DNA of 62,960 nt, the filler included. It is 12 parts of 12 records of this genome, joined end to end, with 100 filler letters (N's around TTAATTAATTAA, not from the genome) between each part and the next. Parts side by side here need not be neighbours in the genome. Positions count along the whole stretch, not along the records: positions 37,764 to 43,625 come from SRR7504441_7779; 11 more parts are not named here. The stretch is one strand, 5' to 3'. The notes under the pieces are model-generated. The model was not told where the DNA came from, searched no databases, and worked only from the letters and a program-made list of their open reading frames with translations. The position numbers and the translations under genes were made by a program. Positions 1-47,044 of this stretch are shown here, in pieces. The stretch's first letter is position 1; every line of letters starts with the position of its first letter.

Positions 1-192
1 ACGTGAGCCAGCTTCTTGCTGAATGTAGTCATCTAGTACGTATGTGCGATCTTACTGTACTACTAAAGTACTATTTTGTACTGTTATTTTGTACTGTACC
101 TGCGATTGGTACCTGTATACTGTACTGTACTCGAGAACTTGAACCCGGGAACCGGGAAGGGCGGTGTGCGGACGTCGACTGCTAGTAGGCAA

Positions 193-3100: not shown

Positions 3101-4069
3101 CGAGACCATGGCTAAGGATCTGCGGAAGGAAACCCAGAGGACCCTGCGCGCCCAAGATCCAAATGCCCCTGACCTCGAGATGGCGATAGAGGTAAGTTCA
3201 CAACCTAGAGCAGAGCGCTAAGGGGTGGTGCGGTGATAGGAAGCTATGAGGCAAGTGCCTGAGCCTAAGAGCCCGGATGAAATCGAAAACTACATGGGCA
3301 AAGTGTCGGCCGAAGCTGAGCTGATTTTTGTACATAACCCGAATGCAATAAAACAGTATGAGGAGCGTAAGACCAAGCTGCTGCAGCTTCGTGCTGAGAT
3401 GGAGGTAGATGGCCATCTGGGCTACTGGTGAGTAGACCTTGTCTCAGGGAAAAAAGAGCCAGCTGGCTGCGGAGGAGAGCTCTTTGGCCAGTGATCAGAG
3501 CTACTGGAAGTCCGAGCTCTCTCCGATTGTGGAGCAGATCGACAAAGTATTTGCAGAGCACATGAAGGTGGCTGCTGCAATATTTATACATTCCATAATC
3601 GGCTCGGGTGTGTGCAGTCTCTTGAGTTTGACGGCGCAGTCTGCCTACAGGAGCACCCGTCTGACTTTTCAATGTGGTGCATCGACATCAAGGTGCTGGG
3701 CCACTGTCGGCCATCTCATGGCATGGGCAGGTGCGATATAAGCCAGGACAAGAGATCAGGACTCTAGACAGCCAGGCCCAATCCGGCGGGGAGAAGACAA
3801 TGGCCACGATTATCTACCTCACAGCGCTCCAAGAGCAGGCCAGGTGCCCGTTCCGGGTGGTGGACGAGATCAACCAGGGTGTGGATGAGACCAACGAGCG
3901 CAAGATTTTCAAGGTAGTCTCCAACAGCGCGTGCGAGAAGCCACACGTTCCACAAATGTTTATGATGTGCCAGAAGGTGGTGACCGGATTGGAGTACCAC
4001 CCTAACATCACTGTGCTCAACATTTTCAACGGGCCGTTCAACTGCACTCAACGCGACTTGTTGCTTTGA
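193..4069 (+). CDS. SMC5: Structural maintenance of chromosomes protein 5 (multi-exon, many short introns)
   Basis: Spliced reading gives GSIVQIKLKNFMTY..GPRMNFVIGPNGTGKSSLMCAIAVGLG (Walker A), LGIQIDNLCHFLAQDKV, coiled coil/hinge, and QSGGEKTMATIIYLTALQEQARCPFRVVDEINQGVDETNER (signature/Walker B typical of SMC5). GT-AG introns of about 37-70 nt. Confidence 0.96.
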
Positions 4070-4264
4070 TATATAACTCGGCTTACTCGTACAAGTGCAT
4101 TTCGAATGTGCGTTGTTCACGGTTGCCAGCACATTTTGAGATCGGGTTTCTTCTTGATAATATGATTAGTAATGTTTTTAACTAATTGATATTATCTTGA
4201 TGAATAAATCCTTACGTATTCGATAGAATAGAACTGTTAGCTGCCGGTTCCCGGTAGCTCGCGT

Positions 4265-4364
4265 NNNNNNNNNNNNNNNNNNNNNNNNNNNNNNNNNNNN
4301 NNNNNNNNTTAATTAATTAANNNNNNNNNNNNNNNNNNNNNNNNNNNNNNNNNNNNNNNNNNNN
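4265..4364. other. Artificial contig spacer N44-TTAATTAATTAA-N44; identical spacers at 13136, 16597, 19979, 23816, 37664, 43626, 47274, 50881, 55276, 59118
   Basis: Identical 100-bp N-flanked linker with stop codons in all six frames, repeated 11 times; genes are truncated at these points. Confidence 0.99.
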
Positions 4365-5746
4365 CGCGGGCTGCTGGGCGGACACGGCGAGCTGATGCCG
4401 CAGGGGCTGTTCTTCCTGCCGGGCAGCGACCGCCCGCTAGCGGAGGAGCGGGCCTGCGGCGAGCTGCTGGCCGGGCGGGGACGGGTGTGGCTCGAGATGC
4501 CTCACCGGCCTGGCTCGGACCCGACCAAAGAGGAGATGGAGACTTGCCTGCGGATAAAGCAGGCGATCCGGCCGCTGCTCGAGGCTCGGCTGGGGGGCGA
4601 GCCGCCGCTGGCCGAGCTGCGGGCGCTGCTGCTAGAGTCTGAGTACATTGCCACCGGGATGCTTTGCCTCGGCCGGAACGACGGCACTCGGCCGGGCCAC
4701 CTGACCTTGGTCGGGCTCGCGCTGGTTCAGCACGCCCAGCAGCTGGCGGCCAGCCACCCACGCACCCCGATCAAGCGGCGGGCCGCCCAGGCGGCCAGGG
4801 CCGCGTTGGCCCGGGCGGCGGTTGCGGCGGCCGGGGCGTGGCTGGTGGAGTGGCCTGTCGCGCGCCGGGTGTGCAGCGCCGTGGGTGAGCGGCCTGCTGA
4901 GTCCGGGCTGGTGCACGAGATCGGGCCCGGGCGGTGGGCCGGGCTGGGGGCCGAGCTGTGCGGGCGGGGGCTCCTGGTACTCGAGGATGTATTCCCGGCC
5001 CATCTGCTCTGCCGGATGGCGAGCGAAGCTGCGCAGCTGGATGGAGAGAGGCTCCGGCCGCCGGTGCTGCTCCACAGGACCCAACCGGCGGCCCCGGGGG
5101 CCCAGGCCGGCCAATTCGAGGCGGATCACCACCTGCGGGACAGCTCGGTCCGCGGGGACAAGGTGTGCTGGCTGGACGGGTGAGCCACTGGCCTGCTGGT
5201 GCTCTCACTCCGGGCAGGTGCGATCCTGGCATCCCGTGGCTCTCGCAGGTGGTCCAGTGGCTGCGGCAGGAGCTCGGGCACCTGCTGGCCGAGCAGCTCT
5301 ACCAGCTCAGCCGCGGCCGGTGCGCGCTGCAGGCGCCTTCGCTCTCGCTGCAGCTCGCACAGCTGGCGAGATATCCAGGAGACAGCACAGCCGCATTTTA
5401 CAGGCATACCGACAACATCGGATCTGCCGACGACAAGAGGGTGGTCACTGTGATTCTGTACTTGAACGAGGGCTGGCGGGAGGCCGATGGCGGGGCGCTG
5501 CGGCTGCACCTGGTGCGTGCGGGCGGGTTGCCGGCTATTGAGATTGGGGCACAGCCGGCCGGTGACCGCGACGTGATCCCGCAGCTCGGGACACTGGTCT
5601 GCTTCTGGTCGCACCTGACTGCCCACCAAGTGCTCCCGTCGGGCCGGGACCGGCATGCAATATCGATGTGGCTCTCAGTGGATGATATGAGTCAAATGGA
5701 CCTGAGCAGCTGGGAGCTTGCCCACTTTACACAACAGCCCGGATAG
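4365..5746 (+). CDS. 2OG-Fe(II) oxygenase, EGLN/prolyl-4-hydroxylase-like (5' possibly partial)
   Basis: VRGDKVCWLDG, QLARYPG..FYRHTDN (HxD), RVVTVILYLNEGW..DGGALRLH, FWSHLTAHQVLP..RHAISMW; one intron at about 5180-5217. Confidence 0.85.
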
Positions 5747-5793
5747 CCTAAAAGTAGGTTACTGCACCTGGATCTAGTCAATCTAATTTTTAT

Positions 5794-6704
5794 TCACGCC
5801 ATTTTGGCAACATTTAGACACGCCATCGCTGCAAACTTGGGATCCTTGCAGTAACGGCTGCTGCAACCTTGGAGTTTCTTCCAATCTTGATTTTTCCATT
5901 GAAACTTGCAAACCTTGTAGCATCGGACCTGCTTCTTGACGTCACACACTCTCCCTCGGCACACCGTCTCTTTTCTCATTGCGCAGACTGGTGTCATGAA
6001 CCCGCCAGAGCCCTTGACGTCAGCAAACCAGCTTTGAGCATCGAGGTCCGGCAAGCCAGTCACCCTCACGAGTGATGTAACCAGACCGGCCTTGGTGCAG
6101 ATCGAATTGTTGCTAAAGGCATTAGCGCCATCAGGGCCACCGTTCCAGTAGTCACCATCCAGAGTTGCACACCCGATGCGCCCACCCTGCCTTTTAATAT
6201 TATTGAAGTGCTTGCACTGCCCGGCTTTGCTGGTGTGATATTGAAGAAAAAACGCGTAATTTTCATCGTGGCAGCTGGTGCAGGTACAGTAGGGTCCGCT
6301 CATCTTATCTTGGACCCTCCCCTTGCCCCAACCCTCGGTGTCGGCCAGCGTCACCTTGACTGCGGTCTTGCAGCCGCAGGCCCGAGCATTTCTGCACTTC
6401 TTGCTTTTGCACGACTTAGATGGTATTAAGTTTCCCTCGTTCGCGGGGAGCTCCGACCCGGCGGAGCTGTTGAATGCTCCTTCCCACCCTCTCCCGCCGG
6501 TGGCGCTCTTGTTTGGGGCTGTGAGCGGGGCGCTGGAGTCTCTGTTGCCCCCCAAGCTGTACTCCTGGGCCAAGTCAGAGGCGAGCGCCGACTGGGACGA
6601 GTCGCTGCTCCGGCCTGCAACCCCCGTCAGCCCGACCCGTCGAGCCGCTCACCAGGATATGCCAGCGCCGCCAGCACCGCCACGACAACCCGAATCTCCA
6701 CCAT
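5794..6704 (-). CDS. Secreted cysteine/lysine-rich protein of unknown function
   Basis: Signal-peptide-like MVEIRVVVAVLAALAYP, one GT-AG intron, then ORF 5794-6573 with about 20 Cys. Confidence 0.7.
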
Positions 6705-6892
6705 GGCTCACAGGCCAGCCTGCTCAACGGACTTGCAGACGCTCCAGTGAAAAGGTCAGGACACGGTGATTCGTGACTTACTCGTACAACTATGCCGCAC
6801 GTAACAGTATGATTGTACATGCGGTATCAAGTTGGGTAACTTGCGATCGACATCAAGTGATGTTGGTTAGATGCACAGAGCTATTTATTGAC

Positions 6893-8537
6893 TTATTTAG
6901 ACCGTTTGAGCAGCATGGCCTCATAGTTCTGGACTTTCTCTAGCAGCTCAGAGTTCTTATCCCGGCTCTCCTTGAGCTTGCCTTCCAGCTCACTGATCCG
7001 GCCCTTGGCCGCGCTCAGCTCGGTCTTCAGATCTTCCTCCCGCCTGCCCTGCTCGGCCTTCATCTCGGCCGCCGCCCCGTCGCTCTTGTTCTGGCTCTGC
7101 TGCAATTTCTTGCTCATAGCCACCAGTGAGCCGTGCAGCTCACGCTCCTTCATCTTGGCCGCGTGCGCCTCCTCCGTGCGCAGCCGCTCCAACTCGTCTA
7201 CCTTCAGCCGCAGGCTATCGTCCTGCGCCCGCTCTCAGGCGCCTGCCCGGGCTGCCCTGCGCACCGTCGACAGCCTGGCTGCCTCTAGTTCTTCCAGCCG
7301 GGCGGCCAGCTGCGCGGCCAACTCGATCTCGGTCCTGTCCGCCCGGGCCTCCAGCTGCTCCAGCTCGTACTGACAGCCTGCCCCCGAGCTCAGCCGGGTC
7401 GGGCGGCTCATTGTCGCCCCGGAGCGCGTCGTGCTTGGCCGCTCGCTCTAGCATCGTCTTCTGGAGCTCGGCCTCTAGTGCGGCCAGCTTGCCCTTCACT
7501 CGGGCCAGCTCCTCCTTGTCGTGCGAGCGCTCCTGCTCCAGATCGAGCTGCTCTGCCCGTCGCTGCTGCCGCACGCCCAAAAGCTGCTCGGCCGCCTGCT
7601 CAGCCGCCTGCTCCGCGACCTCAAGCTGCCGCTTGAGCGCTGTGTTCTGCGCGTGCAGGCCCAGGCAGCGCTCCTTGAGCCCCGGCAGCTGGCTGGTGAG
7701 CAGCGCCTCGGCCTTCTCTTCCCGGAACTGTATCTCTGCCTTCTCAGCCGCCTGCACCGCCAGCTCCTCCCGCAGCCGGCTAGCCTGGGCCTCCAGCTGC
7801 TCCTTGTCGTGTGACAGCGCCTCAAACCGCTCAGCCAGCCGGCCTGCCGTATCCTGCTGGCCTAGCCTGGCCGCTCGCTCCTGCTCGGCCTCTATCCGCG
7901 CCCTTGCCGCCGCCTGCCCCGCGCGCTCGGCTTGCTCAGCGAGATCCACCGCGCGCGAGGCCGCCCGCTCTTCAACTAGCCGCCGCTCGCTCTTCTCCCG
8001 GTCGCACTCGGCCTGCAGCTGGCCCCTCTCGGCCAGCAGGCCCTCTATCTCCTGGGCAGCCTGCCGCCTGAGCGCCTCCATCCGGTGGGCCGCCCGCTCG
8101 GCTTGGGTCTCCAGCTGGCCGCCCTGCTCGGCCACTGTGGCCTGGAGCAGCCGGGTCTCGTGCAGCAGCCCCTCGAACTCCTTGGCGTCCTCCCGCTCAA
8201 CGGTCAGCTTGTCCATCCGCTCCCGCTCCAGCACCAGCTTGAGCGCCGAGCTCTCCGCCAACAGGCTCTGCAGCCGGCGGGCGGCGCTCCGCTCCTGCTC
8301 CTGCTCCCGCTCCCGCCGCTCGAGCTGCTCCTCCCGCCGCTCCAGCTCGGCCTGGCCCTGCCGCTGCACGTCGGCCTGCCGCTGCGAGAGCAGGTCGGCC
8401 TGCCGGTCCCGGACCCCCTTCGCCTTCCGCTCGCGCGCCAGAGCGGCCTTGAGCTCACGCGCCTCCTCGGCTAGCGCTTTTCGGCTGGGAGGCGGCTCCA
8501 TCGCCTCCCACAGCCGATCGCACTGCTTACGGAGCAT
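6893..8537 (-). CDS. Long coiled-coil protein (start uncertain, possibly 8598)
   Basis: E/Q/R/A-rich heptad ORFs 7215-8540 and 6893-7192, joined by a probable 40-nt GC-AG intron near 7380-7420. Confidence 0.7.
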
Positions 8538-8692
8538 CAACCCGCCACTACAGTAGCCCCACCTCCACCACCCACCACCCTGCTGCCCGCATCCACATCC
8601 AATCGAATCAAGAATTGCGCAAGCCGTTGGGCCAAGGTTTCCCCTGATGATCCAGATGCGTAGGGTGGCCCTTGGGGGGTTTCCTCACTAGG

Positions 8693-11600
8693 ATGCGTAT
8701 TGCCCTTCTGGCCGTGGTGCTGGCGGGGCTGGTCTGGCCGTCGGCCGGCCGGCGGTGCCTCCTGAATGAGACAACGTACCCGGCCAAGTGGAGCACCAAG
8801 CCGAGCTTCGAGCCGATCTTCCAGATATCTTACTGGTGGCTATGCGCCGGGGCGGGCTCAGCCGGGGGGCAGGGACTCGCACATGCTGGTGACCCACGCG
8901 CTCAAGATCCTGGCCGAGGATCTCTATGGGTACAACGTCACGCTCTCCCAGCTCCGCACCTGGGGCGAAAGCATCCTCGAGTCGATGGACGCCGACCAGG
9001 TCGATTTGAACGCTGAGGCCTGGCGGGTCGACCAGCCGATGCTAGCCAAGTACATCACGAAAGCCCTGCCCGCCGGCAGCATCGGGTGCGCCCCGCCGAC
9101 CTGATCGGGCTGAGCTGGCCGCAGCTACTCGGCGCTGTCCGGTCCGCATGTTATTGGTAGTGACCTGCCGCTCGAATATGATAAAGTCCTCTCAAACTAC
9201 AAGAGCCTCCAGACCACCAAAGTGACCAGCTTCCCCTCGGCGGCCGACATCCCCTCCAACGTCAATTGCACCTTGTCCTGGTGCATCGAGCGCGGGGCGG
9301 AGGAACAATACAACTGGGCCGACACATGCGAGGCCGACCCGGCCAGCTGCGGCGCCCTCGGTGAGTAAAAGCCAGCAGCCCGCCGGCTGACACCGGGACA
9401 GCGGTCCCAGAGTGGGCGTATCTGGGCACTCACGCCCAGCTGCTCCGGAACGTGAAGCTCAACCTGACCCTGGTGATATCGCTGGCCGAGCTCGGGCTGA
9501 CTGGTTGGCTAAGGTGTACCGGAGCGACGTGAAGTCGCTGGTCCAGGAGTACTACGATAACAAGAGGCCGTTCCTGTTCTACTGGTGGCAGCCCGAGCGG
9601 ATGATCGAGAACACCGACGCCAAGCTGCTCACGCTCCCCAGCTACAACAACACCCAGTGGAGGACTGCTGATAGAGATGACTGCTGCGCGCCCGACTCGA
9701 TCATTGCCTCGGCCTGGGACTCCGAGCTGCTCTACAAGATCGTCTCGACACGGCTCACAAACAACGCGCCCACGCTGCTGGCGCTGATCCAGAACATGAT
9801 GCTTGGTCGGGGCGAGATCGCCGACATGCTCGCGATGCTGCCAGCCGACAGCCCGGACGACTTCAACCCCGACGCGGAGGAGACTGCCTGCCGCTGGCTG
9901 CTGGAGTACCCGTGGGTGTGGGAGTCCTGGCTGCCCCAGCTGTACTGCCAGAGCAACTATAAAGTGAATCAAACTGAACAAGGCAGAGAGATTTGCGAGC
10001 CGTGCGAAGCCGGCAAGGAGTCTTCGGCCGGGTTTGGGACCACGAGCTGCACCGACTGCCCAGCCGGCACGTACAGCTCCCAGCCGGGCCAGGGCTGCCA
10101 GACCTGCCCGCTGAGCTCGTACGAGCCAAACACGGGCTCCACGCAGTGCATCGCATGCCCTGCTGATTCTAAGCGGGACCTCGAAAATTGCTTCCCCGAC
10201 CCTCATACTGGATACTGCGAGGCCGACAGGATACAGCAGTGCATGTGCGAAAAGGGCACATACATGGTGGCAGACGGCAACGGCTTCACCTGCAACCCCT
10301 GCCCGGAGACCAGCCTCGCATTTGGAAGCGAGAAGTCAGCAGAGTGCCAAGGCATGTACACTAACCCATACAGCAAGCAGAAATACTGGGCTAGCCAAGA
10401 AAAACCACTCGAGTTCTTTCGGTGCAACTTTGGTTCGTGCGTGGAGGGGCAAGCCACGTGCTTTGGCACCGCTACACCTGGCTATCCACAGTGTAGCGAC
10501 GGTAACTACACTGACGGAATACTTTCCCGGTGCGAAGACCACTATCACGGTACCCTGTGCGCCCATTGCGAGTCCGACTACTTCAAGTACGGCAGCTATT
10601 GTCAAAGCTGCCCGGATGAAAGCTGGGGCTGGCTTTTGTACATTATTTCTCCTCTTTTCTGGGTCTTCTTCTTCTTTCCCATGTTCAAGCTGCTGATCGG
10701 CAAGAAAATCACCCCGTCGCTGTTCGTGTCGCTGCCGTTCGTCCAGATATCTGCTATTATTGGCACATTTGGGTTCGACTGGCCCGATTTGGTCAAAGGT
10801 ACGTTGTCACAATTCAAGTTGGTTAACTTTGATATCAATCTATTGCTCTTCGACTGCTGGGCTAGCGAGGATCGGACGGGAATTGACCGAGAATTCCTCG
10901 GGCAATGGCTGTTTGTCGAGTCTTTGCCTCTCATGTATGCCGCACGATGTGAGCTGCATGCGCCAAGCGCAGGGGGCTGAGCCTGTGTGTTGCAGATTTT
11001 GGATGGCACTATGTTAAGAAATATATTCTTAAGAGCTTCAAGCACGACAAAGGAGTCGACATCGATGGAGATGGAGCTGTCGATAACTCGGCTGAAGCGC
11101 TCTCGTGGTACAGGGCTCTTAAAAGTACGGGCTTCTTGACAAATGTGACTGGCCAGATCTTTGGCCCTGCCTCTGACAGTTGTGCTGGATGCAGTTGCTG
11201 TACATTGTGTTGACTTCAACTTGGATGCAACTGTACAACTGTACGGAGATCTATGAGGGGTACTCAGTGCTGACCCTCGACCCGCGAATCCGGTGCTACG
11301 AGGGGCAGCATCTGGTCGCAATGGTGCTGTCGGTGTTCCCGATGTTTCTTTACACGATTGGCTGGCCGGTGTGTCTCTGCGTCATGTTCTACGTGGGTTC
11401 AAACAAGTTCAAGCTCAACGATCCAACGTTTGAGCTGTGTTTTGGCTATATATACAAGCGGTATGAGGCCGAGTGGTTTTGGTGGCACATTGTCGTGATG
11501 GGGTACAAGCTGGCATTCGTGCTGATTAGAGTATTCCTGTTCCAGACTTTCTGGCAAGGGCCAGTCGCGTTGCTAGTTGTATTTGTGCTAGTGATGACCC

Positions 11601-13135
11601 AAACATACGCCCGACCGTTTGAGTCGGATAAACTCGACAGGATGATGACCTGGGTCCAGACTGCGCTTTTCATTGAGATTGTGATCGGGATCCTCTTCTG
11701 CACCGACTTCGGCGAGAGTGACATGAAGACCGGATTAACTGTGCTGATCATGGTCGTTCTGTTCGGTACTCTGCTCTACATCCTCGCCGAAATGTACTTG
11801 GATGTGATGAGATTTAGGACCCAGCAGTTGCTGAACTCCATTTTTGAACGCGAAATCTCCGCAGGGCGCGAAAGCACCTTCTTGGACGCCAACATGTTCA
11901 CTCAGAAACGCTTCGCGAAGTGGGTCTTCGAGGCAAACGACGACAACGAGCAGTGGCGTTTGTTCGCTCGGTTCAGCAAGAGCATGAAGAAGAAGGCGTA
12001 CAGGCTGCCCGAGCACCTGAAGGATCAGGTGCTGAGGATGATCAAAGGCGCCCCGGAGCTGCTCGATCTGGCCTTGTACAGCACCGACGCCAAGATCATG
12101 TGCAAACCGCTCGGCGTACGATTGTGCGATGAGCTCGCCAATCGATATCACGGTGACCTACTCGCGAATCAAGGGTGCGTGATGCAAGAGGAAATACCGA
12201 CACACCCGATCGGGATAGCCAGCTGGGTGATCCGAAGTATGAAGGAGAAGTACATGGGAGAAGAGACGCTTCAGTTGCCAACTTGGTTTGGTGGAAGTAA
12301 GATCGAGATGGTGGGAGGGATTCCAGCTGACATGGCAAAGACTATTTTCAAGCAAGCACACTGGGGGCGCGTATTCTGGTACTTGTGCCACTGCGATAAG
12401 GATGAGCGGGTGCTCGCCTTCGAATGCTTCCTAATGATGTTTCACCGCAAGTTCTTTAGCGAGCAGGAGTGCCGCAGCGCATATCAGAAGAAGGTGGCCA
12501 AAACGAATGTGGATCACAAGGTCATACTGTATGCCATCAACGACTGGATAGAGAAAACGAAAGCATGCAAGGCAAAAGAAATTGGCAACTGGTTTCTTCA
12601 AACTCAAGCCAAGGCAAAGGAACCTGAACTCGAGCAAAAGGAGGATCCTGCCGTCGGGGTGCCGCCTGGCGCACATGACGACAGCCAGTATTCGTCCAGT
12701 GGCCCCCACATACAAGTGGAGCTTAATCCGATCCAGAGTCTGCCCATCTATGCGAACACAAGCACGGGGCCAAGCATGGCCAGCACTTGCCGGCGGTACT
12801 GGGACAGGTACGATGCGGACGGGGTGGGCAGGTTGGCCAGTCCGGAGGACTTGGAGATGCTCCTGATGAATCTGATCGCCCAGACCCAGTTCGCCGAGCT
12901 CACCCGCCAGCACGAGTATGACTGGGCTGCCCTAGAAGCTAAAGTGGCGAGCTCGCGAGCAGAGATGGAGGCGGCGGTGCAGCAGGACAGACAGTTTAGT
13001 GTCTCGCTCAATGGATTCGTCACCTGGTTCGACGCCAGCTTCGTCAAGAATCAAGCCGTTGCGTTGAGCGAGGCGAGAGCAGCTACACCTCAAAAGACCA
13101 GTGAGGTAGAAGGTACGAGTACGCCTCAAAACAGC
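8693..13135 (+). CDS. Multi-pass membrane receptor-like protein: signal peptide, periplasmic-binding (ProX/OpuAC-like) ectodomain, Cys-rich ephrin/TNFR-like repeats, multi-TM region, EF-hand-like loops (3' partial)
   Basis: MRIALLAVVLAG signal; LKILAEDLYGYNV, VDLNAEAW, PFLFYWWQPE, ACRWL..W.SWLP (betaine-binding-like motifs); CxxCPAGTYS repeats; LTLDPRIRCYEGQH, FGYIYKRYEAEWFWWHIV, YARPFES TM motifs; DIDGDGAVD and DADGVGRL loops. Confidence 0.8.
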
Positions 13136-13346
13136 NNNNNNNNNNNNNNNNNNNNNNNNNNNNNNNNNNNNNNNNNNNNTTAATTAATTAANNNNNNNNN
13201 NNNNNNNNNNNNNNNNNNNNNNNNNNNNNNNNNNNGTGTTTTGTAAGATGTGGTGACTATCCGCCTAAAATCTAATCTTTTTTTTTCCAACCTCTTTTAG
13301 AACGACACAACCAACTCGCCCGGCAGCCGAATCCTCCGACGGAGCG

Positions 13347-16344
13347 ATGAACATAGATGACATCTGGGCTGAGCTGCAGGCCGAGGCGGCCCCAGCGCCG
13401 CGCCCGCGCGCACCCCGCCAGGTCGCCCCGCCTCCGACCGTTGCTTAGTCCCACGCGCAGGCGGTCAGCGACGTGGCGCGGGCTGCCAAGGTAGAGAAGG
13501 TCGCTGCAGAGCTCGCGGCTGCGCCCACTGAGATGGCGGTGGACCCACCGGCCGCCCCGGTCTCCCTGGAGGAGTGGGCTCGTCCGGTGCAAAACAACTG
13601 TTGCTGAGTCTGTAACGCACGGCCATAGGTGCGCCGGGAGCTCAACCGGGCAACAGACGAGGCCATCAACAAAGCCGACCGGCTGGCTGGGCTGCGGGCA
13701 GTCCGTCGGGCGGTGGCGCCGCCGAGTGGGCCGGAGGGCCAATTGGCCGACGCTGCGCTGCTGGAGGTTCGCCACTGGGTTGAAATCGAATCGTTTGACG
13801 GCGGTATTGGCTGCAGGTGCTACTCCGTCCTCTGCTGCAGCTCCTCTCGGACCCCCTCGAACCGTGCCGAGAGGCAAACTGCGCTCCCGGCCGAATCCTG
13901 AAGCGCTGGCCGCAGGGCGCAGCGGGTGTGCTGCTGCTGGCCGTCACAGCAGCAATCGAACCGGCCGCAGCACTGGGGCTCACGCTGCCTGTAAGTCTCG
14001 GGCGCCGGGCTAGCACTCACCTGTCAGTTCAGGTGTTGGCCAGCCGGTTGGTTTACACGGAGGGGGTGCCGCTCGAGCCTGCCGAAGAGGTGCTGCGCCG
14101 TGCCGGCAGGGCGCTGAATGGCAACAGGTGCGACTCAGCCTGGTGTCGCTTCTTGAGCTTCTGATGAGGAAGTCGCCGGCAGACCTTTTGGCCCCGCACG
14201 CCCACGCGGCACTCGGGGCGGCCGGGCGAGCTACCTCCAGCGATCCGTTCCCAGAGGTGAAGAAAGCCGGCTGCGCAGTGATGGTAGTTGTCGCTGAGCA
14301 GCAGCCAGACCCGACCCAACTGCTGGCCCCGGAGCTCGCTCGTGCGCTCCAGCCAGCGGTCACACACCAGCACTCCAAGCTGCGTGGGGCGGCACTGTCG
14401 GCTCTCACGGCGATCTCGTGCTGCGGAGCGGCCCCGGCGATCGTGTTTGAACCCTCTGAGATGGTCCAGCTGGCTGCTGGGCGGTGCCACGACCGATCAG
14501 CCGCGGTCCGGCAGCAGTTAGTGGAGCTGCTCGGCACATGGCTCCGACTGCGCAACGGACGGCATGGCGGGAAGGAGCACACGACCACCGCGCTGCTCAA
14601 GGCGGTGCTTGAGCTGCTCGGGGACGAGTCGGCTGCAGTGGGCGAGGCGGCACTGGCTCTGCTTTGTGAGACGGGCGAGGCGTTTTTGACCTCAATGCAA
14701 CAGACCGTGGTGCCTGCGGAACCGATGGCAGAAGATGTCAAGGTAGCGGCGGTGGCAGCTACCGTGACAGTTGACTGTCTGCCTGTCCAGCCAGGTGGCT
14801 CTGGGGGTCGAACAGTGGCGGCGCGTGCACAGGCGCGGCTGCCGCGATACCAGTCTCCGCTTACCGGGCCTCCACCGGATGGGGCAGTCGCGCTGGTGCA
14901 GGCGCATCTGCCCGCCATCATGCCGGGACTGCTCACAGAGCTTGGGGAGTGGACGGAGGCTGGCCGGCGCGGGGCACTTCGGCTACTGGCGGCACTGCTG
15001 CCTCTGGCAGAGGGCGAGCTGGTGGTGTGGGCCGTGCCAGCACTCCAAGGGCTGATCCAAGCTGTGAGCAGTGGCGCGGCCAACGTGCATAAGCAGGCTT
15101 GCGAGTGTGCCTGGATGATCGGTTGCTTTGTGGCTGCTGATGAGACGCTCCCAGCAGTATCTCGATTGGTGCCCTCAGACACCGGAGCGATTCAAGTGGC
15201 AACCCAGCTACTCATTGCAGCAGACGAGGCCTCACAGCAACTATCTCAAAAGGTCTTAACCCGGCTACTGTCAGCGGCAGCGGCAGCTGTCGACGCAGAG
15301 CTGCCCAAATGCGGCGAAAGTGTGCTAGGGCTATGCTCGGTGCTGGTTAAAGTTGGTGTGGAGCCTCTAGGGCCTCTGGTGGCACTGCTCACGCGGCTTG
15401 GAGTGCTCGAACAGCCTGGGCTGGCATCGGTAGAATCGGCGCTGGCTGCCAGGGCCGGGGTAGGCGGCGTTTCGGAGCTGTACAGCAAATATGCTGACGA
15501 GGTGCTCGCAGAGTGTGTGCGTGGCGGTTGTGCTGGGTGGACCGCATCTTGCCTCTCGTGGCGAGCATTTAGTCTGGTGCTTCAGCGAGCTGGACCGGCT
15601 GTGTTGCATACCAACCAGGTTGTCCAGAGCACCCTTCTTGAATGCACCCAGACCTCGAGGGACGGCTCGCTGCGGCTTGCAGCGCTGGACCAGCTCAGTG
15701 AGCTACTGCCAGCCGGGGGCGTAGCAGCCTGGGATCCCCACCTATCTGGACGGCTGCTGCTGGAGGCAACGATACCAAATGCGGTGTGGAGGGCTGGCCG
15801 ACAAGCAGCACAGGTCAGGGCAGCTGCGCTCGGAGTGTTGAGGCAGCTGCTCGCTCGGTTTGACGCCAGTCACAAATCGAACTGGCAGCTGGCGGTGAAT
15901 GAGCCGCGATTCGGACTGTTGGCTCTGCTAATGTCGGCCCTCCAGGACGACGAGGTCAAGCCACGACTGGTGTGCTGCGAGGTGCTTGAACAGTTGTTCT
16001 GCCGCCTGGATCCAGCCAGTTTCTCATACGACCAGGTTCGCACTCTGATACCAGAGGTGCTCAAGCGACTCGATGACTCACGCGACCAGGTGAGGCACGC
16101 AGCGTTGGCTGTGGTCCGAGCCCTGGGAACCGTTGTGGAGCACCTTCAGGTGTCGAGCTATGTGGAGTATCTAACCGATGGACTGGCACCGTACCTTGAC
16201 GATCTTGGCCTGAAGGAGGACTTAATCGCCACAATCAAGAGGTTTGCAAGTGTGGACCTTGAGGCATACACCAAAGCGATTGAAAAGCTACAGAAGCGCG
16301 GGATTCCGGCGGACGTATGTGCTGAGCTGATGGCCATGCTATAG
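13347..16344 (+). CDS. DNAAF5: HEAT-repeat protein, dynein axonemal assembly factor 5 (HEATR2)-like
   Basis: HEAT repeats with LLRPLLQLLSDPLEPCRE, SDPFPEVKKAGC, HQHSKLR, CHDRSAAVR, IPNAVWRAGRQAAQVR, PEVLKRLDDSRDQVR, matching recalled HEATR2 motifs. Confidence 0.8.
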
Positions 16345-37763: not shown

Positions 37764-37850
37764 AAGGCTAGTATACAGCAAGGCTAGTATACAATAAGGC
37801 TAGTATACTAGTATACAGCAAGGCTAGTATGTAGTACTAGTTAGTAGGGC
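37764..37850. repeat. Intronic ~16-bp tandem repeat (AAGGCTAGTATACAGC-like, about 4 copies)
   Basis: aaggctagtatacagc / aaggctagtatacaat / aaggctagtatactagtatacagc / aaggctagtatg seen directly. Confidence 0.85.
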
Positions 37851-39891
37851 CCTACTATATAGCGGCTGACCGGTTTGACGGGAGCAGCTGGTGCAGCGCG
37901 TTGTGTCCGACTGTGAGCAGCCGGGACGGGTCAACGGCCTTGATTGCCTCAATCCTCCAGCCAAGGTACTCTCCCCACATCTGATCCATCCCAGTAAACG
38001 CCTCGGCCGCCCGGATCGGCATCGACGACACGTCCGGCGGGATCGGTTTACACGCACTGAACGTGGTGGACCAGCCCCCGCACTGCCACCGGACGTATTC
38101 GCCTGCAGCCGAGCTGAGCCCGCAGCCAGTAGGGCAGGCGGACTCCAGTTCTTGGCGGCGGGGTGCGCGTCCCAGAGGGTCTGGTTGGGCCCGATGCTGA
38201 TCGCCCCCGGGAAGTCATACTGGTCGTCCGGCTCGTTGCATAAGTCAAACCCAACCACCTGCCACGCCCGTCACGGCACAGCGCAGTACTTAGATAGTAT
38301 ATACTACCCAGCTCTCGTTCTTGAGCAGCGCAGCGTCGTGTGCGGCGGCGGCGATCACAGCCTGCTTGGAGTCAGTGGCCTATATACTGTATACAGTACT
38401 ATATACAGTACTATATACACAGTAGTACTAGTACTAGTATAGTAGGGCCTGCTTGGAGTCGGTGGCCGGCACCCGGGCGCCCTTGTAGCACTCGAGCGTC
38501 ACCAGCAGCCTAAACCTCGACCTCAGCCTCGCTAGATTGATAGGGAGCCTCGACCTGAGCCCGGAAGCCTGGTGGAGCGCTCGGATCATCCGCAGCACGT
38601 CCGGCTGGGCCCAGGTGGCCGGCAGGATCCCATACACCCGCACAGTGTTGAGCCCGTAAGACACAGCTGCACGGCCGATCATCAGCGCCTGGCACCCACG
38701 GCCGGATGGTGCCTGTGCCCAGGTCGGACGCCAGGATGCTGCCAGCCAGCGCTCAGTGGACAGAATCTGCTGAGCTAGACCACAGGGCTAGTAGTAGAGT
38801 GTGGCACCCAGGGGCTGAGACCTGGCTGAGACACGTCCGTTGGGCTAGTACATAGTAGCATATACAGTACTATATACAGTACTATGCACAGTAGTACTAT
38901 ATACAGTATAGTAGGGGCCGACCTGGCTGAGACACTTCCGTTGAACGCTCCCCGGAAATAGTTGGCACCCAGCATGAAATACCGCTCGCCTGCACCGCGG
39001 CTCGAGCACCAGCTCCCGCCGTACTATACTAATGCACATACATACTTGTAGTATACTATTCGAGTACCGGTGCTGTAGACTAAGTGCCCGTCGGCCACTC
39101 GGACTGGCCCGCCCGGCTTGCTGCTCCACGCCCCGGCCGCACTGGCCCGGCTCGTCTGCACCGGACGCCCATTCTCCCCTGCCGCGGCCGATCACCACGT
39201 GCTTTACTAACTAATCGTACCAGCAAAGTGGCTGCTGAGTAGACTCAAGATCGGGCTACTCATGTAGAACTCGGAGCCGGCCACCCCACTCAGCAGCCAC
39301 CGGCCGTGCCCGAACACCGCCCCGGCCCTGAACCGTCCGTTAGATGCCGTTGGCGTCCGTTGGTGACCTGTACTGGCTCACGGCCCACCCTACCGACCGG
39401 TTGTAGCTATCCACCGCCTCCGCCCAGGGGACCAGCGCCGCGTCCCCGGTGACCCACCCGACCGCGCTCAGCCCCGTCACTGGTGTCCGCAGCTCGAACC
39501 CGGGGCCAGGCGCGCCCGGGCTGGATCGCACCCGAGCCGTCCCCGCGAGGTGGTACGGCTCGTATGGAGAAAGGACGTTAATCGGGAGCTCGGCGGCGGT
39601 GGTGTTGATCCGCGGGGGGCGGCCGCCGAGCAGACAGAGCGTGCCGCCCCGCCGGGCGAAGGCCAGATAGTTTGGGACCGCGGCGGGGGTGAGGGCGGGG
39701 GCGTGGGCCAGGAGCAGCCCAGAGAGGTCGTGGAGGCCAGACAGGTCGGCGGGCAGGATCACCGCGCCCAGCCGGGCGGCCAGGGCGCGGGCGAAGCTGA
39801 TGTTTGGACCCGGCAGCACGCCGATCGTCGGCTGGACGGCGGACGCCCAGGCCGACAGCCAAACGGCGAGCAGCGCTGTGGACCGGTGCAT
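37764..39891 (-). CDS. Secreted clan GH-A (GH5/GH2-like) glycoside hydrolase (3' partial)
   Basis: Signal MHRSTALLAVWLSAWASA; spliced GHLVYSTGERYFMLGANYF, DLGTAVSYGLNTVRVYG, SWVVGFDLCNEP (acid/base NEP), TVGYN. Confidence 0.75.
38360..38467. repeat. 21-bp direct repeat (38360-38380, 38447-38467; 1 mismatch) flanking a TA-rich filler; forms an 87-nt intron
   Basis: gcctgcttggagtc(a/g)gtggcc twice around tatatactgtatacagtact...tagtatagtagg. Confidence 0.9.
38819..38943. repeat. 24-bp direct repeat (38819-38842, 38920-38943; 1 mismatch) flanking a related TA-rich filler at an exon/intron junction
   Basis: gacctggctgagacac(g/t)tccgttg twice around ggctagtacatagtagcatatacagtact...tatagtaggggcc. 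Confidence 0.9.
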
Positions 39892-39908
39892 CGGCAGTTG
39901 TTTCTGCC

Positions 39909-39938
39909 GTTGTTGTTGTTGTTGTTGTCGTCGTTGTT
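39909..39938. repeat. (GTT)n microsatellite just upstream of the GH start codon
   Basis: gttgttgttgttgttgttgtcgtcgttgtt. Confidence 0.9.
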
Positions 39939-40046
39939 TGGGCTGCCGACAACGTGAGGCCGGCCCATAGGGTCGGGCGGCTAACCGGGCGCGGCCAGGT
40001 GCTGCAGAACCACCAACTGCACTGCTTGCTGGCGGTGGCCGTTGGG

Positions 40047-40585
40047 ATGGAGGATGCCAAGCGTAAGGCGGACTGCTTGCCGTGGCCCTATGGGGCCGCG
40101 CCCTCCTCGGTGCTTAAGGCGAATGCGGCGAATGGGCTCAGCTGCTTCCTGGAGCTTCGTAGGCTCCCGCTGGGTCCTCCCAAGGTCGGCGATGTCCACC
40201 CTTAGCAGGTCCACGAGTGGGTGCAGGCGCTCCTCGCAGAGCCGGCGCCACGCGTGCCCAATGCCAGCTCCTCCAGCCTCCTCCTCCTCCACCTGGCGAG
40301 ATCCAGCTCTTGAACCGACTGAGTTGCCCCGAGTTGCCTCGAGGCCGTGCTCCTATTTCTTCTCTCCAACAGCATCACAGAGGCCCTTGTCCCACAGCCA
40401 CCGAACGTTTACCTTCTCTTTCTTTAAGCTTATAGGGTATAGCTGAGCCGGTGCATCATTAAGTCTTGTAGTTGCAGTGGGCATACAGTGGGCACAACCA
40501 TTTGCCTCGGGTGATCATGAGCCAGGCTGGTCAACGCTTGCATGGCGGACTTGCATCCAATGAAGCTTCGGTAGGACTGGTGTAA
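40047..40585 (+). CDS. Small multi-exon hypothetical protein
   Basis: Short open segments can be joined by plausible short introns (MEDAKRK..VHEWVQALL..AVLLFLL..LQWAYSG..GLV*); no homology recognised. Confidence 0.3.
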
Positions 40586-40679
40586 GTTGTACGAGTAGCG
40601 CGCTTCGCGCGCTTGCTTCTTGGGCAATGATCTGACTTTGGCGCGACGTTCGATTTGAGACGAATTTTGAGGCATCATA

Positions 40680-41655
40680 ATGCCGTCCGCCGCGGCTCGA
40701 GCGGGCTTTGTGCCGCTGTCCACCAGGTGGGCGCCACGGCTGGGGCCTGGGGCTCACCCGGCGGGCGCAGCGACGTGGACCCGGCAGCCAGTCCGATTCC
40801 GCGCCCGGTAGCCCCCGCCCTCCCGGCCCCTCACTCAGGACAGGGGGCGCTCGCCCGGCGAGAGGCCAACACCCCCACACCAACCACCGGCCGGAAAGAG
40901 GCCCGGCCACCGGCGGCGGGGGAGGAGGGAGTGGATGAGCGCGAGGAGCGCAGGAGCGCCGAGGCGGCCGGGCTTTTGCAGCTGATCGCCCGGGCTTCGC
41001 AGTGGGTTAAACCGCCCGTCGCCGGCTGAGAGGGGGGCAGGAATAACGGGGAGCAAGACTTTCAGGCGGCCGGCGCGGGGCGGGCGGGCGGCGAGCGGGC
41101 GGCAGGGCTGGCTGGCCCAGCAGCGCGGGGACATGGACGGGATGTTCAGTCAGCTGGACGCCAAACTAGACCTAAGGTACCCCCGCGGTGGCCGAGGCTC
41201 GAGCCGTGGGCCAGGAGGGCTCAGCTGGAAAAGATGCTGGCCGATTCGCAGCCGGCGCCGACGAGCAGGTTTATCGGAGCGGCGGCGGTGCTCGGGCTGC
41301 CTGGTAAGTCTGCTGCTGATGGTTATTCGGATTGAATAGTGTGGATCGAGGGCTGATCTTGGCGGGGGCAGAGGACACACCGCCCTCCACGCTGCGGCGA
41401 GCCGAGTCGCCGGACAGCCCGGCGTCAGATTGCGACTTAGAACGGTGGGCACTCCTAGGTTTTGAAGGGGTTTTGCTGATTAGCGGTGTCAACATGCTTT
41501 GGCACTTAGCCTGACAGCGAGGTGAGAGGGGTCGTACTTGCAGATACATTGGACACTCGAATAGCTCGACACCAGCCAGGCTGCCGGGCAATCCGCCCAA
41601 CACTGTGGCGCTTAATCTTGATCAACCCACGTGCCAAGCGTGTAGCGTGATGTGA
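40680..41655 (+). CDS. Small multi-exon hypothetical protein ending in a CaaX-like motif
   Basis: ATG 40680, several short GT/GC-AG introns, last exon predicted ..PTCQACSVM*. Confidence 0.5.
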
Positions 41656-41799
41656 TGCTTTATACGTGCTTCGTACGCACTACTTTAGTAACGTTTGAAA
41701 AACATTGGTAAACATCCGTGTGGTCCAATTTAACGCGCTCTATTCAACGCTCTGTATGATTTTTAATTAAGAAAATAATACCTAAGTAAGCTACGGGAC

Positions 41800-42337
41800 T
41801 CAGATTTCTTCGACGTGGCTTGGCAAGCTTCCGGGCCTGGGCCTGCCATAGAGCTCTTCATGGCTCAGCTTGCCGTCGCCGTCCGCGTCGTGGATGTCAA
41901 ATCGCTGCTCCGTCTTGAGCTTCCCGTGCTGGTGATAAAACTCTCGCACGTCGATCATCAAGTCCCCGTTGCTATCCATCGCATCAAACGCTTCAGTCGA
42001 GCTCCCCTGGCGCATAGACGTGATCAGGCTGGCTGAGCTGTTGCTTGTACAGCCTGGCGTACTCACTGAGACTCACCGCCTGGTCCCCGTTCAAGTCGAT
42101 CAGCCCAAACAAGTCCGCCAGCCCGTGCTCGACCATCTCGTGACGGTCGAGCTGGCCGTTGGCGTTCGAGTCTAGCACTACGAACTCGCGCCGCACCGCC
42201 GGGTCGGGCTGCCGCTCCGGGTGAGGGTCCTGCCGGAGAGCCACCAACTGGTCTAGCGAGCCGGACGGGAACTCCGGCCACTCGCTCAGCCCCGCCGCCC
42301 ACCCGGCCAGCGCCAACACCAGCCCCCCGCACCGCAT
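41800..42337 (-). CDS. Secreted/ER-luminal four-EF-hand protein
   Basis: Signal peptide; DSNANGQLDRHE, DLNGDQAVSLSE, DSNGDLMIDVRE, DADGDGKLSHEE; C-terminal VEEI. Confidence 0.85.
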
Positions 42338-42414
42338 GCTGATGACCACGCGATGAGATCACCACATGGGGGGCCTCTCTCAAAGTCCGTTGCCTCAATA
42401 ACGGAATTATCACG

Positions 42415-43487
42415 ATGTGGCGGCCGGGGCCGCGGGAGGTGCTGCTGGTCTCCTCGGCCGAGGAGCCGGATCTCATCCCGGACGACGTGCACCTGCTGGC
42501 CGCCCTGGCCCGCCGCGGGGTCCGCCCGGTGATCCGGCTCTGGGACGACCCGGCCGTCGACTGGCCGGCGGTTCGGGTGCTGCTGCTCCGGTCGCTCTGG
42601 TCATACTCGCGGCCGGGCCGGTTCGGGGAGTTCGTTAGGTTTCTGGACCGGCTGCAGGCCGAGCCGCGCGAGGACCTGGCCAACATCAGGCCTCTGCTAA
42701 TCATATGCTAGTATATGTAGCACTGGGCGGGAGGCTGGTGTATATTGGGCGATGCCAGCACTGAGCCGCCGGCAGGTGGCACGCGCACAAACGGTACCTG
42801 CTCGACCTGGCCGCGGCCGGGGTCCCCACAGTGCCCACCCTGCTCGCCCGCGCCGCCCCCGTCATCCCGCCGGCCGACCCGCGATGGGATCCGTCCTGGA
42901 CCGTCCAGCCGGGCGGCCGCTGGGAGACTGTCCGCGTGGCGGCCGAGCGGCGGGGCTGGGACGTCAGGGGGGACGGGCTGGTGATCAAGCCAGCGATCGG
43001 GTCTGAGGGCGATGGGGTGCGGAGGGTGCGGTTCGGTCGGGCCAAGCGGGCGAGGCTGGACGTGCCGCTGGATGAGGATGTGCTGGTGCAGCCCTTCTTG
43101 CCACTGGTGAGGCAGCTGGGCGAGCGATGCCTGCTGTACGTCAGAGGCAAGTTCACGCACGCCATCCTCAAAGACCCGATTGAGCTGGCCGGCACCCCAG
43201 GCCCTGAGACCGCCGTGTTCCCCAACAAGGCTAAGGCGACTACCCCGACTGCTGAGCAGCTAGCGGTGGCCGCGGCCGCGCTTGGCGCGATGCCGGGCGG
43301 TCTGCCGTTGGTGGCGCGGATTGACCTGCTCCCGCGGGTGGGGCCGGGCCGGGTGGACTGGCTGCTGAGCGAGGTGGAGGTCTTTGGCCCCGAATTGTTC
43401 TCCAGAGTCGACTCGGCGGCTGCTGAGGCTGTCGCTCACGAGATCGACCGGCTGTTGGTCTCGTCAGAGCCGGACGACGGCTCTTAG
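42415..43487 (+). CDS. ATP-grasp ligase, RimK/DcsG-like
   Basis: WDDPAVDW..LLRSLW.Y, W..HKRYLLDL..GVPTVPT, VIKPAIG, VLVQPFL..GE..L..G.FTHA..K, ARIDL, LSEVE..PELF; one GC-AG intron 42690-42775. Confidence 0.85.
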
Positions 43488-43725
43488 CATCGGGTGCGCG
43501 GCTTTAATTAATAATAAATCAACTAGGCGCCGGCGAGCTGCACGTGCAGGACCAGCATCTCAGCAGCCCGCGGATGTAGCTCGCCTACTGCCTCCGGCGG
43601 CACTCTCGTGTGCGGCAGCCCAGCTNNNNNNNNNNNNNNNNNNNNNNNNNNNNNNNNNNNNNNNNNNNNTTAATTAATTAANNNNNNNNNNNNNNNNNNN
43701 NNNNNNNNNNNNNNNNNNNNNNNNN

Positions 43726-44631: not shown

Positions 44632-47044
44632 TTATGGTGGTTTATCAGTGCCCACTCCTGCTGTTGAGAACCGGGTCTCCTGTTGTCGATGCAGCTCGTT
44701 GTTCATCTCTAAGGCCTCTTCAGTCTGTTGAAGGTTGCTCCTCAGCTGCTCTAACCGGCGCAGCGTGCTCTGAAACACCAGACACACCCACTGAGCCACA
44801 TGCTATCAGCTACGCGGCACCTCTTCCATCGATGGGCCTCTAGTTCGGCTCGAGCTATGTTGAGTTGGAGCTGCTGGCCAGGGTCAGTCGCATCCCAGCG
44901 CTAACCCTAACCCTAAAGGCAAGCCAGAGTCAGTCGCATCCCAGCGAGCACAGGACGGGCAGGCTTACAAGCCCAAGCCAAGCCTGCTACCGTGCTCTTG
45001 AGTCGGGTCGTTCTCTCGAACTTGCTTAGATGGCGCCTCGGCCGCCTGACCCTAGACCGATCGATCAGGCTACACCGGCAGCCACCTCCGGCTGCAGCTG
45101 GGTTGGGAGCGCAAGCTCCTCTGCCAGGCTGGTCTCGATCTCGTGTGGCCGTGGCGAATCGACCGAGGCTGTGCTGCTGCAGACCGAGCCGGGAGAGCGG
45201 TGCAGCTGCAGCTCGGTGGCCAGGACGGCCTGCTTGGCCTGGAGCGGCTTAGCTGAGCACACTAGCTGCCACCTGCAGGTGAGTGATGTATCGGCTGTGG
45301 TCTTGACACAGCTGGTGGTAGGTCGGTCGCCTCACAGCGTATCTCAACACTAGTATATCCCGATCAGATATGTACCCATCCTGCCCGACCCTCTGGCCTG
45401 CCCTCTGCCCGGCCGCTCACCTGCACTAAGTGCTCCACCCGCGCAAACCTGTTGTAACCCCAACACTCTCCCACCTGACCAGCGTACGCTCTCAGGCATC
45501 CCCCACGCTCGCACTTCAAAATCGGAGCCAAACTCTCTGGCAACTAGCGCGATGTTGGTGTTGGGGAGCAGGTCGCCCATCTCGATCCGATACTCGTACT
45601 TGGACGGCCCGCCTATCTCGATCGGGCTGGCCACCATCTCCAGGAAGACCGACAGGTACACCCCGAGTGCCACCCCGTTCCCGTTAGGGTAAACCTGATC
45701 CTGATCGGGGATGCTCGCTCGGCAGGCACCTTCAGGCGCCACGAGACCCCATTTGAGCCGTGCAAGCAGTCGCTATAGAGCACCTCGCCGCGCTCGCGCT
45801 TGGCACTGAAGTCCTGAATAGCAAACTCGCCAAACTCATACGGCGGCACCAGCTCCGACTGCAGCCCTGACACAAGCTCGGGGTGCCGCCAGACTGCACG
45901 CACCGTAGCGACCCTCTGGCTCGGCCGTGGCCAGCGCCCACTTGGCTGCCTCCGGATGCTCCTGTGGGCTGTGAGCGCGGAGCTGGCTGACCCGACCGGC
46001 TCGGTGAGCAGCGAGTCAAGCTGGTCCTCCAGCTCGTCCGCGATAGAGGCCACAAACTCATCCCTTGGCACCCCACTCACTCCCTCCTGCACCTGCACCG
46101 CCCGATTGCAGCACACCGACCGGCGCAGCCGCGCCTTCTCCAGCCCGGCCTCCAGCCGCTGCGACTCGGTGAGCAGCTCGGCCTGGGCTAGGGTCTCAGC
46201 GGCTGGGCTGGGCCGGCACCCTGGTGGCTAGCAGCTGGAGCAGCTGGTGCTTGTGCTCCGCCTCCACTCTTCCGACCATCGCCTCTATCGTGCTCCGCAC
46301 CTCAGCCAGCCGCTCCTCCTTGGACTTTGCGAGCAGCTCGATGTTTGATTCAACCTGCTCTCTGCTCACCCTAACCCTAGAGTGCTCTGGCCTGTTCGGT
46401 GGCCTCTGTGAGCAAGCTGAGCCTCTTGAGCAGACGGGACGACTTGGTGGACACCGCGTCCAGTCTGTGGTTATAAAGCTCCTGCAGCTGGCTCACTTCG
46501 TGCCCACGGTGCTCTCCGAACAGCGCGCAGTCCGAGCAGATCGCCACCTGACACCTCCAATCTGCTCGGACCGGCCCAAGGCCCAGGGCCGCACTTGCAG
46601 CACAGGTACTGGACCGGCTGCGAGTGCTGGGCGCACAGGTTCCAGGCCGGGGGCGGGCTGGGCTTGCATACAATCTCGTCGCACAACTGGCCGAGGATGA
46701 GCCGGGCAGCCCAGCCGGCTGACCTCATCCACAAACCGGCACTTGACCAGCCTGGCGCCGGGTCGGGCCGGGCAGCCAACGGTGGCACCCGTCTATGCTG
46801 AGCTGCTCGCGGCAGTGGGGGCAGTGGTCCTGCTGCTGGGTGAGCCAGCGGCTGATGCAGCTGTAGCAGAATATCTTGGAGCAGTGCGGGCATAGTCTGG
46901 CGGCCTGGACCCGGCCGTAGCAGATGCAGCATTTGATGATCTGCACACTGCTCGCCCCTTGCCGCCCACCGCCCCCACCTCCTCCAGCGCCTGCGGGTCT
47001 ATGCCCCCGACCGATCCGCTGTCCTCCTCCACGGTGTGCTCCAT
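44632..47044 (-). CDS. TRIM37: TRIM37-like E3 ligase (RING, B-box, coiled coil, MATH)
   Basis: [104 protein letters not shown]. Confidence 0.93.
44877..44946. repeat. Telomere-type (CCCTAA)2.5 insert flanked by a 24-bp direct repeat inside a TRIM37 intron
   Basis: gccag(g/a)gtcagtcgcatcccagcg at 44877-44900 and 44923-44946 around ctaaccctaaccctaaaggcaa. Confidence 0.88.

Follow-up and report, generated by a model that had tools for sequence, protein, structure and literature searches.

Outside a handful of species, introns seldom leave clear molecular traces of their birth, and the locus described here raises the question of whether such a trace is preserved within a coding sequence. The stretch of DNA analysed (62,960 nucleotides (nt), filler included; hereafter the window) is composed of 12 separate contigs of 3.3-13.7 kb joined by 11 linkers, each consisting of N44, a 12-nt linker with stops in all frames and N44; the linkers give rise to 22 runs of 44 N between positions 4265 and 59217, and features are not readable across the joins. 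On the minus strand of the contig that occupies positions 37764-43625 lies a gene which, judged from its sequence, probably encodes a GH5-like glycoside hydrolase of a GC-rich eukaryote. Its coding sequence is interrupted by an 87-nt unit in which a TA-rich filler is enclosed by two copies of the same 21 nt of exon. The reading preferred here, to which a probability of about 0.6 is given, is that an insertion, with duplication of 21 bp of its target, gave rise to an intron specific to this lineage. If the insert is spliced, it represents a textbook-clean case, one that allows a base-exact reconstruction of the empty site and owes both its splice sites to the duplicated target; if it is not, it is merely a small gene-disrupting insertion.

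On the minus strand, the first repeat copy (38447-38467) is exonic, its final two bases, GC, being the proposed 5' splice site. It is followed by a filler of 66 nt (38381-38446), which begins with CCTACTATACT and continues as about three copies of a 12-mer (period 12, 2.9 copies), and then by the second 21-nt copy (38360-38380). The repeat period is thus 87 nt (29 x 3), that is, one 21-nt copy plus the filler. The GC content of the filler is 0.29, as against 0.686 for the joined exons (1409 nt, free of stops) and 0.853 at their third codon positions (GC3), and the filler has no matches other than the gene's other TA-rich introns. The sole mismatch between the two copies is a C at 38461 versus a T at 38374 (ACC/ACT, synonymous if the position is part of a codon). 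An earlier examination of the letters alone (the sequence-only reading) had described a 21-nt repeat with this one mismatch around a TA-rich filler, as well as stops inside the unit; the repeat was confirmed on the minus strand at 38467-38360, and the stops proved to be in frame. Its label of an exon duplication was not retained. Exon sequence is repeated in only 21 of the 87 nt, and on this ground a pure tandem exon duplication was rejected. The unit is an insertion flanked by a target-site duplication: the filler is foreign, a copy of exon stands on each side of it, and one copy suffices for the protein.

The sequence-only reading had also held that the unit can be removed exactly as a GC..AG intron in either of two registers. 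Both registers exist, namely 38448-38362 (register 1; CAG/GC ... GCAG/GC, the slash marking the splice point) and 38466-38380 (register 2; CCG/GC ... ATAG/GC), and both restore the same peptide. The gene model was built by tblastn of three homologous proteins (P0002, P0003 and P0005) against the window. The exon preceding the unit matched one relative, P0002 (409 amino acids (aa)), and the tblastn alignment of this protein shows a 29-residue gap that falls exactly on the 87-nt unit. When the 87 nt are removed, the splicing model aligns with P0002 over 220 aa with 67.3% identity and no gaps, so that precise removability is borne out by a product collinear with a homologue. Since P0002 is equal in length across the junction, the intron would be neither larger nor smaller than the filler plus one repeat copy; and because the duplicated 21-mer ends in CAG/GC, donor and acceptor arise in register. 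The unit begins with GY, ends with AG and restores the frame on removal, as does a U2-type GC-AG intron.

Between the two registers, the first is favoured (proposed intron 38448-38362, minus strand, 87 nt, GC-AG, phase 0): its predicted GCAG/G end resembles the gene's other acceptors, and a branch-point-like CTGAC (38371-38375, minus strand) places its A 11 nt before the putative 3' splice site. In register 1 the second repeat copy is intronic apart from its last 2 nt, and the mismatch is therefore intronic too, which makes its 'synonymous' status irrelevant. It is this single mismatch that creates CTGAC in the intronic copy only, the exon copy reading CCGAC. Within 10-40 nt of the predicted 3' splice site, on its upstream side, a strict yTnAy motif was found for register 1 and was absent for register 2.

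The site was also compared with that of homologues. P0002 matches the Pfam GH5 family PF00150 with 25.9 bits (cut-off 23.5), and further homologues comprise P0003-P0005 and then 141 proteins at E <= 1e-3. When a 90-residue segment of the gene model centred on the junction was compared with the 141 fetched proteins, 30 matched, 29 of which span at least 8 residues on each side. All 29 of these open reading frames (ORFs) are uninterrupted at the site, with length differences of at most 5 residues, and 7 are gap-free. An old intron at the same position in homologues, which the sequence-only reading had named as evidence that would overturn it, was thus not seen in any of the 29. Many of the homologues are short ORFs with unrelated heads and tails, and from this exon-sized look at least some of them probably report genomic structure.

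These data also bear on the idea that an older intron stood here and that the end of the upstream exon was copied to its 3' end only later, through secondary duplication, gene conversion or intron sliding. Internal or boundary repeats do arise secondarily in young Daphnia introns (PMC4202315), and the gene offers a possible parallel: its 45-nt intron (38554-38510, minus strand, GT-AG) repeats 14 nt of its own 5' junction (38561-38548) 33 nt downstream, at 38528-38515, with 1 mismatch. Repeats of this 14-nt class number 11 at spacing 25-150 versus 1-4 at control spacings, so that the one in the 45-nt intron is not significant alone. Against an older intron speak the homologous ORFs, none of which (0/29) is interrupted at the site, the fact that the repeat adjoins the filler on both sides, without extra intron sequence, and the occurrence of the same architecture, with 24 nt, in non-coding DNA (see below). 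An intron that acquired its repeat secondarily is accordingly regarded as improbable.

Long direct repeats at short spacing are exceptional in this DNA. Over the whole window, direct repeats were counted that do not overlap, measure 20 nt or more, have no more than 1 mismatch and lie at a spacing of 25-150. Four qualify: the 38360-38467 unit, the pairs starting at 38819/38920 and 44877/44923, and a true tandem array at 37767. The same criterion gave no repeat at spacing 151-300, none in any of three control bands at more than 1 kb and none in 40/40 block shuffles of the window; by our estimate, the chance expectation is about 5e-4 per window. Larger insertions with similarly long duplications were also sought at spacing 151-14000; the eight candidates all looked like coincidences of coding sequence, at about the chance rate, and were set aside.

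The pair at 38819/38920 belongs to a second unit of the same gene, about 470 bp upstream of the first (38819-38943, minus strand), in which a 24-nt repeat (38943-38920 and 38842-38819, 1 mismatch) encloses a 77-nt filler (38919-38843). The two fillers have the same orientation, are identical in their first 12 nt and contain a 41-nt stretch of 92.7% identity (E 8e-10); elsewhere they differ. Read on the plus strand, they have a common 3' end and differing 5' ends. The shared filler sequence, together with a common end and differing opposite ends, points to a common source element. At this second site, all three homologues compared (3/3) have exactly 13 residues between two conserved blocks. Among the donor and acceptor combinations enumerated by hand, the only one giving this spacing is a 230-nt GC-AG candidate intron (38689-38918, minus strand), which would begin inside the element and swallow the second repeat copy; a 16-nt micro-exon or a loop of 16-17 residues are possible alternatives. 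The second unit supports the insertion mechanism, and not the rule that the duplication delimits the intron.

The filler sequence recurs beyond these two units. Six occurrences of its 12-mer (at most 1 mismatch) were counted in the window, all of them in the hydrolase gene, versus 0.02 expected, and relatives of the filler comprise 38381-38446, 38843-38919 and motif matches in 37764-37870. The last of these segments is the final, incomplete intron of the gene (minus strand), within which the contig ends; it is TA-rich and carries a perfect 16-nt palindrome (37842-37857) with CCCTACTA on both strands, followed by 16/24-nt TA-rich tandem repeats. A shorter motif, CCCTAY, stands within the first 22 nt of 5/9 introns of the gene (38103-38918 and 37844-37849, minus strand), where about 0.13 would be expected in the gene's introns by our estimate; on both strands of the window, it was found 22 times, whereas shuffles predict 37. 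Either a signal acting in introns or a relic of a single element family may lie behind it, and because it is shared among them, the gene's introns look like relatives of different ages.

The third pair (44877-44946, plus strand) lies in non-coding DNA of lower GC that follows a GATase gene. There, a 24-nt repeat (44877-44900 and 44923-44946, 1 mismatch) flanks a 22-nt telomere-like filler made of CCCTAA/CCCTAAA units plus 6 other bases. In our reading it cannot be an intron on either strand, and its appearance is that of telomeric repeats inserted where a break was repaired, with a long duplication of the target. As a 24-nt duplication is thus also found in non-coding DNA, the duplication length is a property of insertion or repair and not of splicing. 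The two further insertions with 24-nt duplications fit the proposal of the sequence-only reading that a process leaving duplications of 20-24 bp is at work. Its idea of a recent birth held in part: a lineage-specific gain is probable, but 'newborn' is too strong a word, since each of the three repeat pairs already has one mismatch and the fillers are 93% alike over 41 nt only.

Several observations weigh against the view that an insertion has become an intron here. No register of the 87-nt unit begins with GT, and, measured against the usual consensus, GCCCTA makes a poor 5' splice site. A strict yTnAy is present in only 2/10 of the intron models tested, which makes the branch-point argument weak. 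Removal of the second unit alone (101 nt, GT..AG, 38922-38822) does not open the frame, since a stop lies in frame a few codons further on; a simple equation of duplication and intron thus breaks down there. The homologous ORFs may be genomic or transcript in origin, and a transcript would not show an intron. An empty-site allele or a near-identical ORF was not found (0 hits from 8 candidates). Within the 63 kb, the filler family is confined to the hydrolase gene, with none in the other ~57 kb. Finally, the assembly is fragmented, with 12 contigs in the window.

Some of these points would suit the same insertion, with its target-site duplication, that is not spliced at all and constitutes a recent or polymorphic disruption, hence a null allele or a young pseudogene. 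The unit has in-frame stops and its boundaries can only be GC..AG, and the second unit upstream likewise breaks the frame when removed alone. The repeat pairs have nevertheless had time for one mismatch each, yet the 1409 nt of exons are without stop or frameshift, keep their high GC3 and remain 67% identical to P0002 without gaps; the gene's other short interruptions are clean GT-AG or GC-AG introns with YAG/G ends. Disruption without splicing is therefore considered unlikely. The fragmentation of the assembly and the end of the contig within the same TA-rich repeat would, for their part, be in keeping with false duplications produced during assembly or amplification, for instance by gap-filling errors or the mis-joining of haplotypes, as would the one-base difference within each repeat pair, such as may separate two haplotypes. 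Errors of k-mer overlap would, however, be exact, and these repeats are inexact; the three cases have different fillers, two of them mutually related and one telomere-like; and taking out the unit gives back a conserved protein with residue-level accuracy, an outcome seldom to be expected of a random mis-join. An artefact appears decidedly improbable.

The removal could in principle take place without the spliceosome, through DNA elimination guided by direct repeats (pointer-like) or as a euglenid-type non-conventional intron, the ends of which meet through RNA pairing. Such removal would be exact in any repeat register, and the filler is palindromic, its two ends pairing in the minimum-energy fold. 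The folds are, however, no more stable than those of shuffled sequences (z = -0.17, 0.27 and 0.35 for three folds of two intron units), so that an RNA structure joining the intron ends was rejected; moreover, removal of the 101-nt unit by its repeats leaves the frame closed, and the gene's other introns have ordinary GT..YAG/G ends. A non-spliceosomal route is held to be highly improbable.

Under the preferred reading of an insertion-born intron, the course of events would be as follows. A short TA-rich repeat sequence, belonging to a small family seen also in neighbouring introns of the gene, would have inserted into an exon of the GH5-like gene at a break with cuts in the two strands offset by about 21 bp. 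When the overhangs were filled in, 21 bp of exon would have come to stand on both sides of the insert as a target-site duplication; a GC donor would then be available in the upstream copy and, in register with it, an AG acceptor in the downstream one. Spliceosomal excision of the filler together with one copy (87 nt, phase 0) would restore the original frame, and the C-to-T change in the intronic copy, by generating CTGAC 11 nt before the AG, may have supplied a branch point. The filler may stem from a mobile element (DNA or reverse-transcribed) or from sequence captured in break repair. Spliceosomal removal of the unit, the staggered breaks and the role of the mismatch as branch point are all three what we infer from the DNA.

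The telomere-like third case and the duplication lengths of 21, 24 and 24 point to a common break geometry or to an insertion of reverse-transcription type, and the sharing of the 21-24 bp length by a telomere-like, non-coding insertion points to a specific geometry or enzyme. A distinct pathway of this lineage can be imagined, in which strands are cut about two helical turns apart (21-24 bp) and the gap is filled by short templated TA-rich or telomerase-type repeats, possibly through reverse transcription; wherever the duplicated target contained AG/GY, ready-made introns would result. This larger proposal is doubtful and is advanced tentatively. Were it true, it would define an introner-like class with GC donors and by far the longest target duplications reported.

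The host gene extends over 37871-39891 (minus strand), from a signal-peptide-like start with its ATG at 39891-39889 to a 3' end beyond the contig. None of the window's own exon pieces matched Pfam (0/4); an NEP motif is present, and the nucleophile region would lie past the contig end. The nearest named protein-atlas clusters of the hydrolase family are bacterial and GH5-like, all with scores below 0.9, and this counts as no more than a lead; for a kinesin, the atlas gave only 'Eukaryota'. Were the hydrolase gene of bacterial origin, every intron in it would be a gain. Several sibling introns stand at positions that are uninterrupted in all homologous reading frames examined. The gene has eight complete short interruptions and the one cut off by the contig end. 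On the minus strand, the introns other than the 87-nt unit are placed at 39367-39328 (40 nt), 39220-39179 (42 nt), 39067-38990 (78 nt), in the region of the second unit (38819-38943; candidate 38918-38689, 230 nt), at 38554-38510 (the 45-nt intron), 38307-38259 (49 nt) and 38143-38103 (41 nt), followed by the incomplete one at 37764-37870. All eight complete intron models end with YAG followed by G; seven begin with GT (GTC or GTA) and the 87-nt one with GC.

Some further features of these introns and their surroundings may be recorded. The first intron (39328-39367) consists essentially of three tandem copies of a 10-mer, the third of which has CTAAC 13 nt before the acceptor; this 10-mer is found again within the 24-nt repeat, in its intronic copy (38842-38819), and the match covers that copy's mismatch base. 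In the 45-nt intron, use of the internal GT as donor would remove only 12 nt with the same acceptor and lengthen the message by 33 nt (11 codons). The tails of P0002, P0003 and P0079 beyond the region of homology read A-L-L or A-P-Y and continue as codon-poor runs of Y/I/L/V; they are compatible with read-through into TA-rich introns starting like the window's element. When six-frame translations of four elements were compared with the 141 proteins by short-query BLAST, the best E was 0.04, and read-through into the same family is thus unsupported. A (GTT)10 microsatellite (39909-39938, plus strand) stands just upstream of the hydrolase ATG; it reads as poly-Q/N in an open frame before the ATG and is probably part of the 5' untranslated region. 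Over the window, contig GC varies from about 0.51 to 0.68 per 2 kb, and known RNA families or tRNAs were not found in it.

It remains to place the 87-nt unit among known systems of intron gain. Introners, the intron-generating transposons of algae, fungi and other eukaryotes, are among its closest parallels. They derive from many transposon classes (PMC12130899), and characterised families have duplications of 3-9 bp, from which some take their splice sites (PMC9860276); in Amoebophrya, the direct repeats measure 3-5 nt (PMC7789003). The likeness lies in a short non-coding insert in an exon, a target-site duplication, splice sites taken from that duplication, an unchanged mRNA and related copies in the same orientation (PMC9860276, PMC12130899), and on its predicted splice sites the 87-nt unit does have a target-site duplication that would lend both of them. 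The differences are the length of the duplications, 21 and 24 bp here versus 3-9 bp (PMC9860276), and the number of related copies, only two or three here, all in one gene of the 63-kb sample. Insertion by target-primed reverse transcription, as in elements of the long or short interspersed (LINE/SINE) type, would be marked by long duplications of variable length, a conserved 3' end with a tail, a variable 5' end and a reverse-transcriptase partner. The fillers, with their common 3' end and differing 5' ends on the plus strand, have no A-tail, and a reverse-transcriptase gene was not noticed among the 18 ORFs scanned.

The new introns of Daphnia pulex, ascribed to the repair of staggered double-strand breaks, in which repeats of the exon end measure 4-12 bp and internal repeats are frequent (PMC4202315), share with the present unit an unrelated filler between direct repeats of the adjacent exon end. 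Young introns there often have internal repeats, as does the 45-nt intron here (PMC4202315). They differ by the length of the repeats (21 nt here), and by the common source sequence of the two fillers here. In dinoflagellates, introns have identical repeated intron boundary (IRIB) sequences of 2-11 bp (PMC5032977). There, too, the exon 3' end is repeated at the intron 3' end, the splice point is ambiguous, AG/G stands at both junctions and donors may be other than GT (PMC5032977); such repeats occur at essentially every intron in that system, and at one intron here, where they reach 19-21 nt. The hydrolase gene as a whole does not follow the dinoflagellate pattern, as an AG/G donor is found in 4/9 introns and boundary repeats at the other introns measure 0-3 nt in our reading.

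Tandem duplication of AGGT-containing exon sequence resembles the present case in that a duplicated AG/GY gives donor and acceptor in register and the message is restored (PMC3265369, PMC4974935). The intron in that model is itself duplicated exon sequence, whereas 66 of the 87 nt here are foreign TA-rich filler, and the unit is thus not an intron made of duplicated exon. For the third duplication (44877-44946), the nearest parallel is offered by mammalian interstitial telomeric insertions at breaks, which show target duplications in 4.6-16% of cases (PMC2246262); in both, a duplicated target encloses a short insert of telomere-like sequence. The differences are the organism and the 24-bp duplication here, and telomerase may have been involved. 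Across all intron classes, direct repeats of 4-30 bp close to intron borders are described in one survey (PMC11782384). Within this non-exhaustive comparison of open-access literature, and as far as the sources go, the kind of event is already known, and the combination of 21-24 bp duplications with a GC donor exceeds the introner, Daphnia and dinoflagellate ranges while the repeat lengths of the survey extend up to 30 bp.

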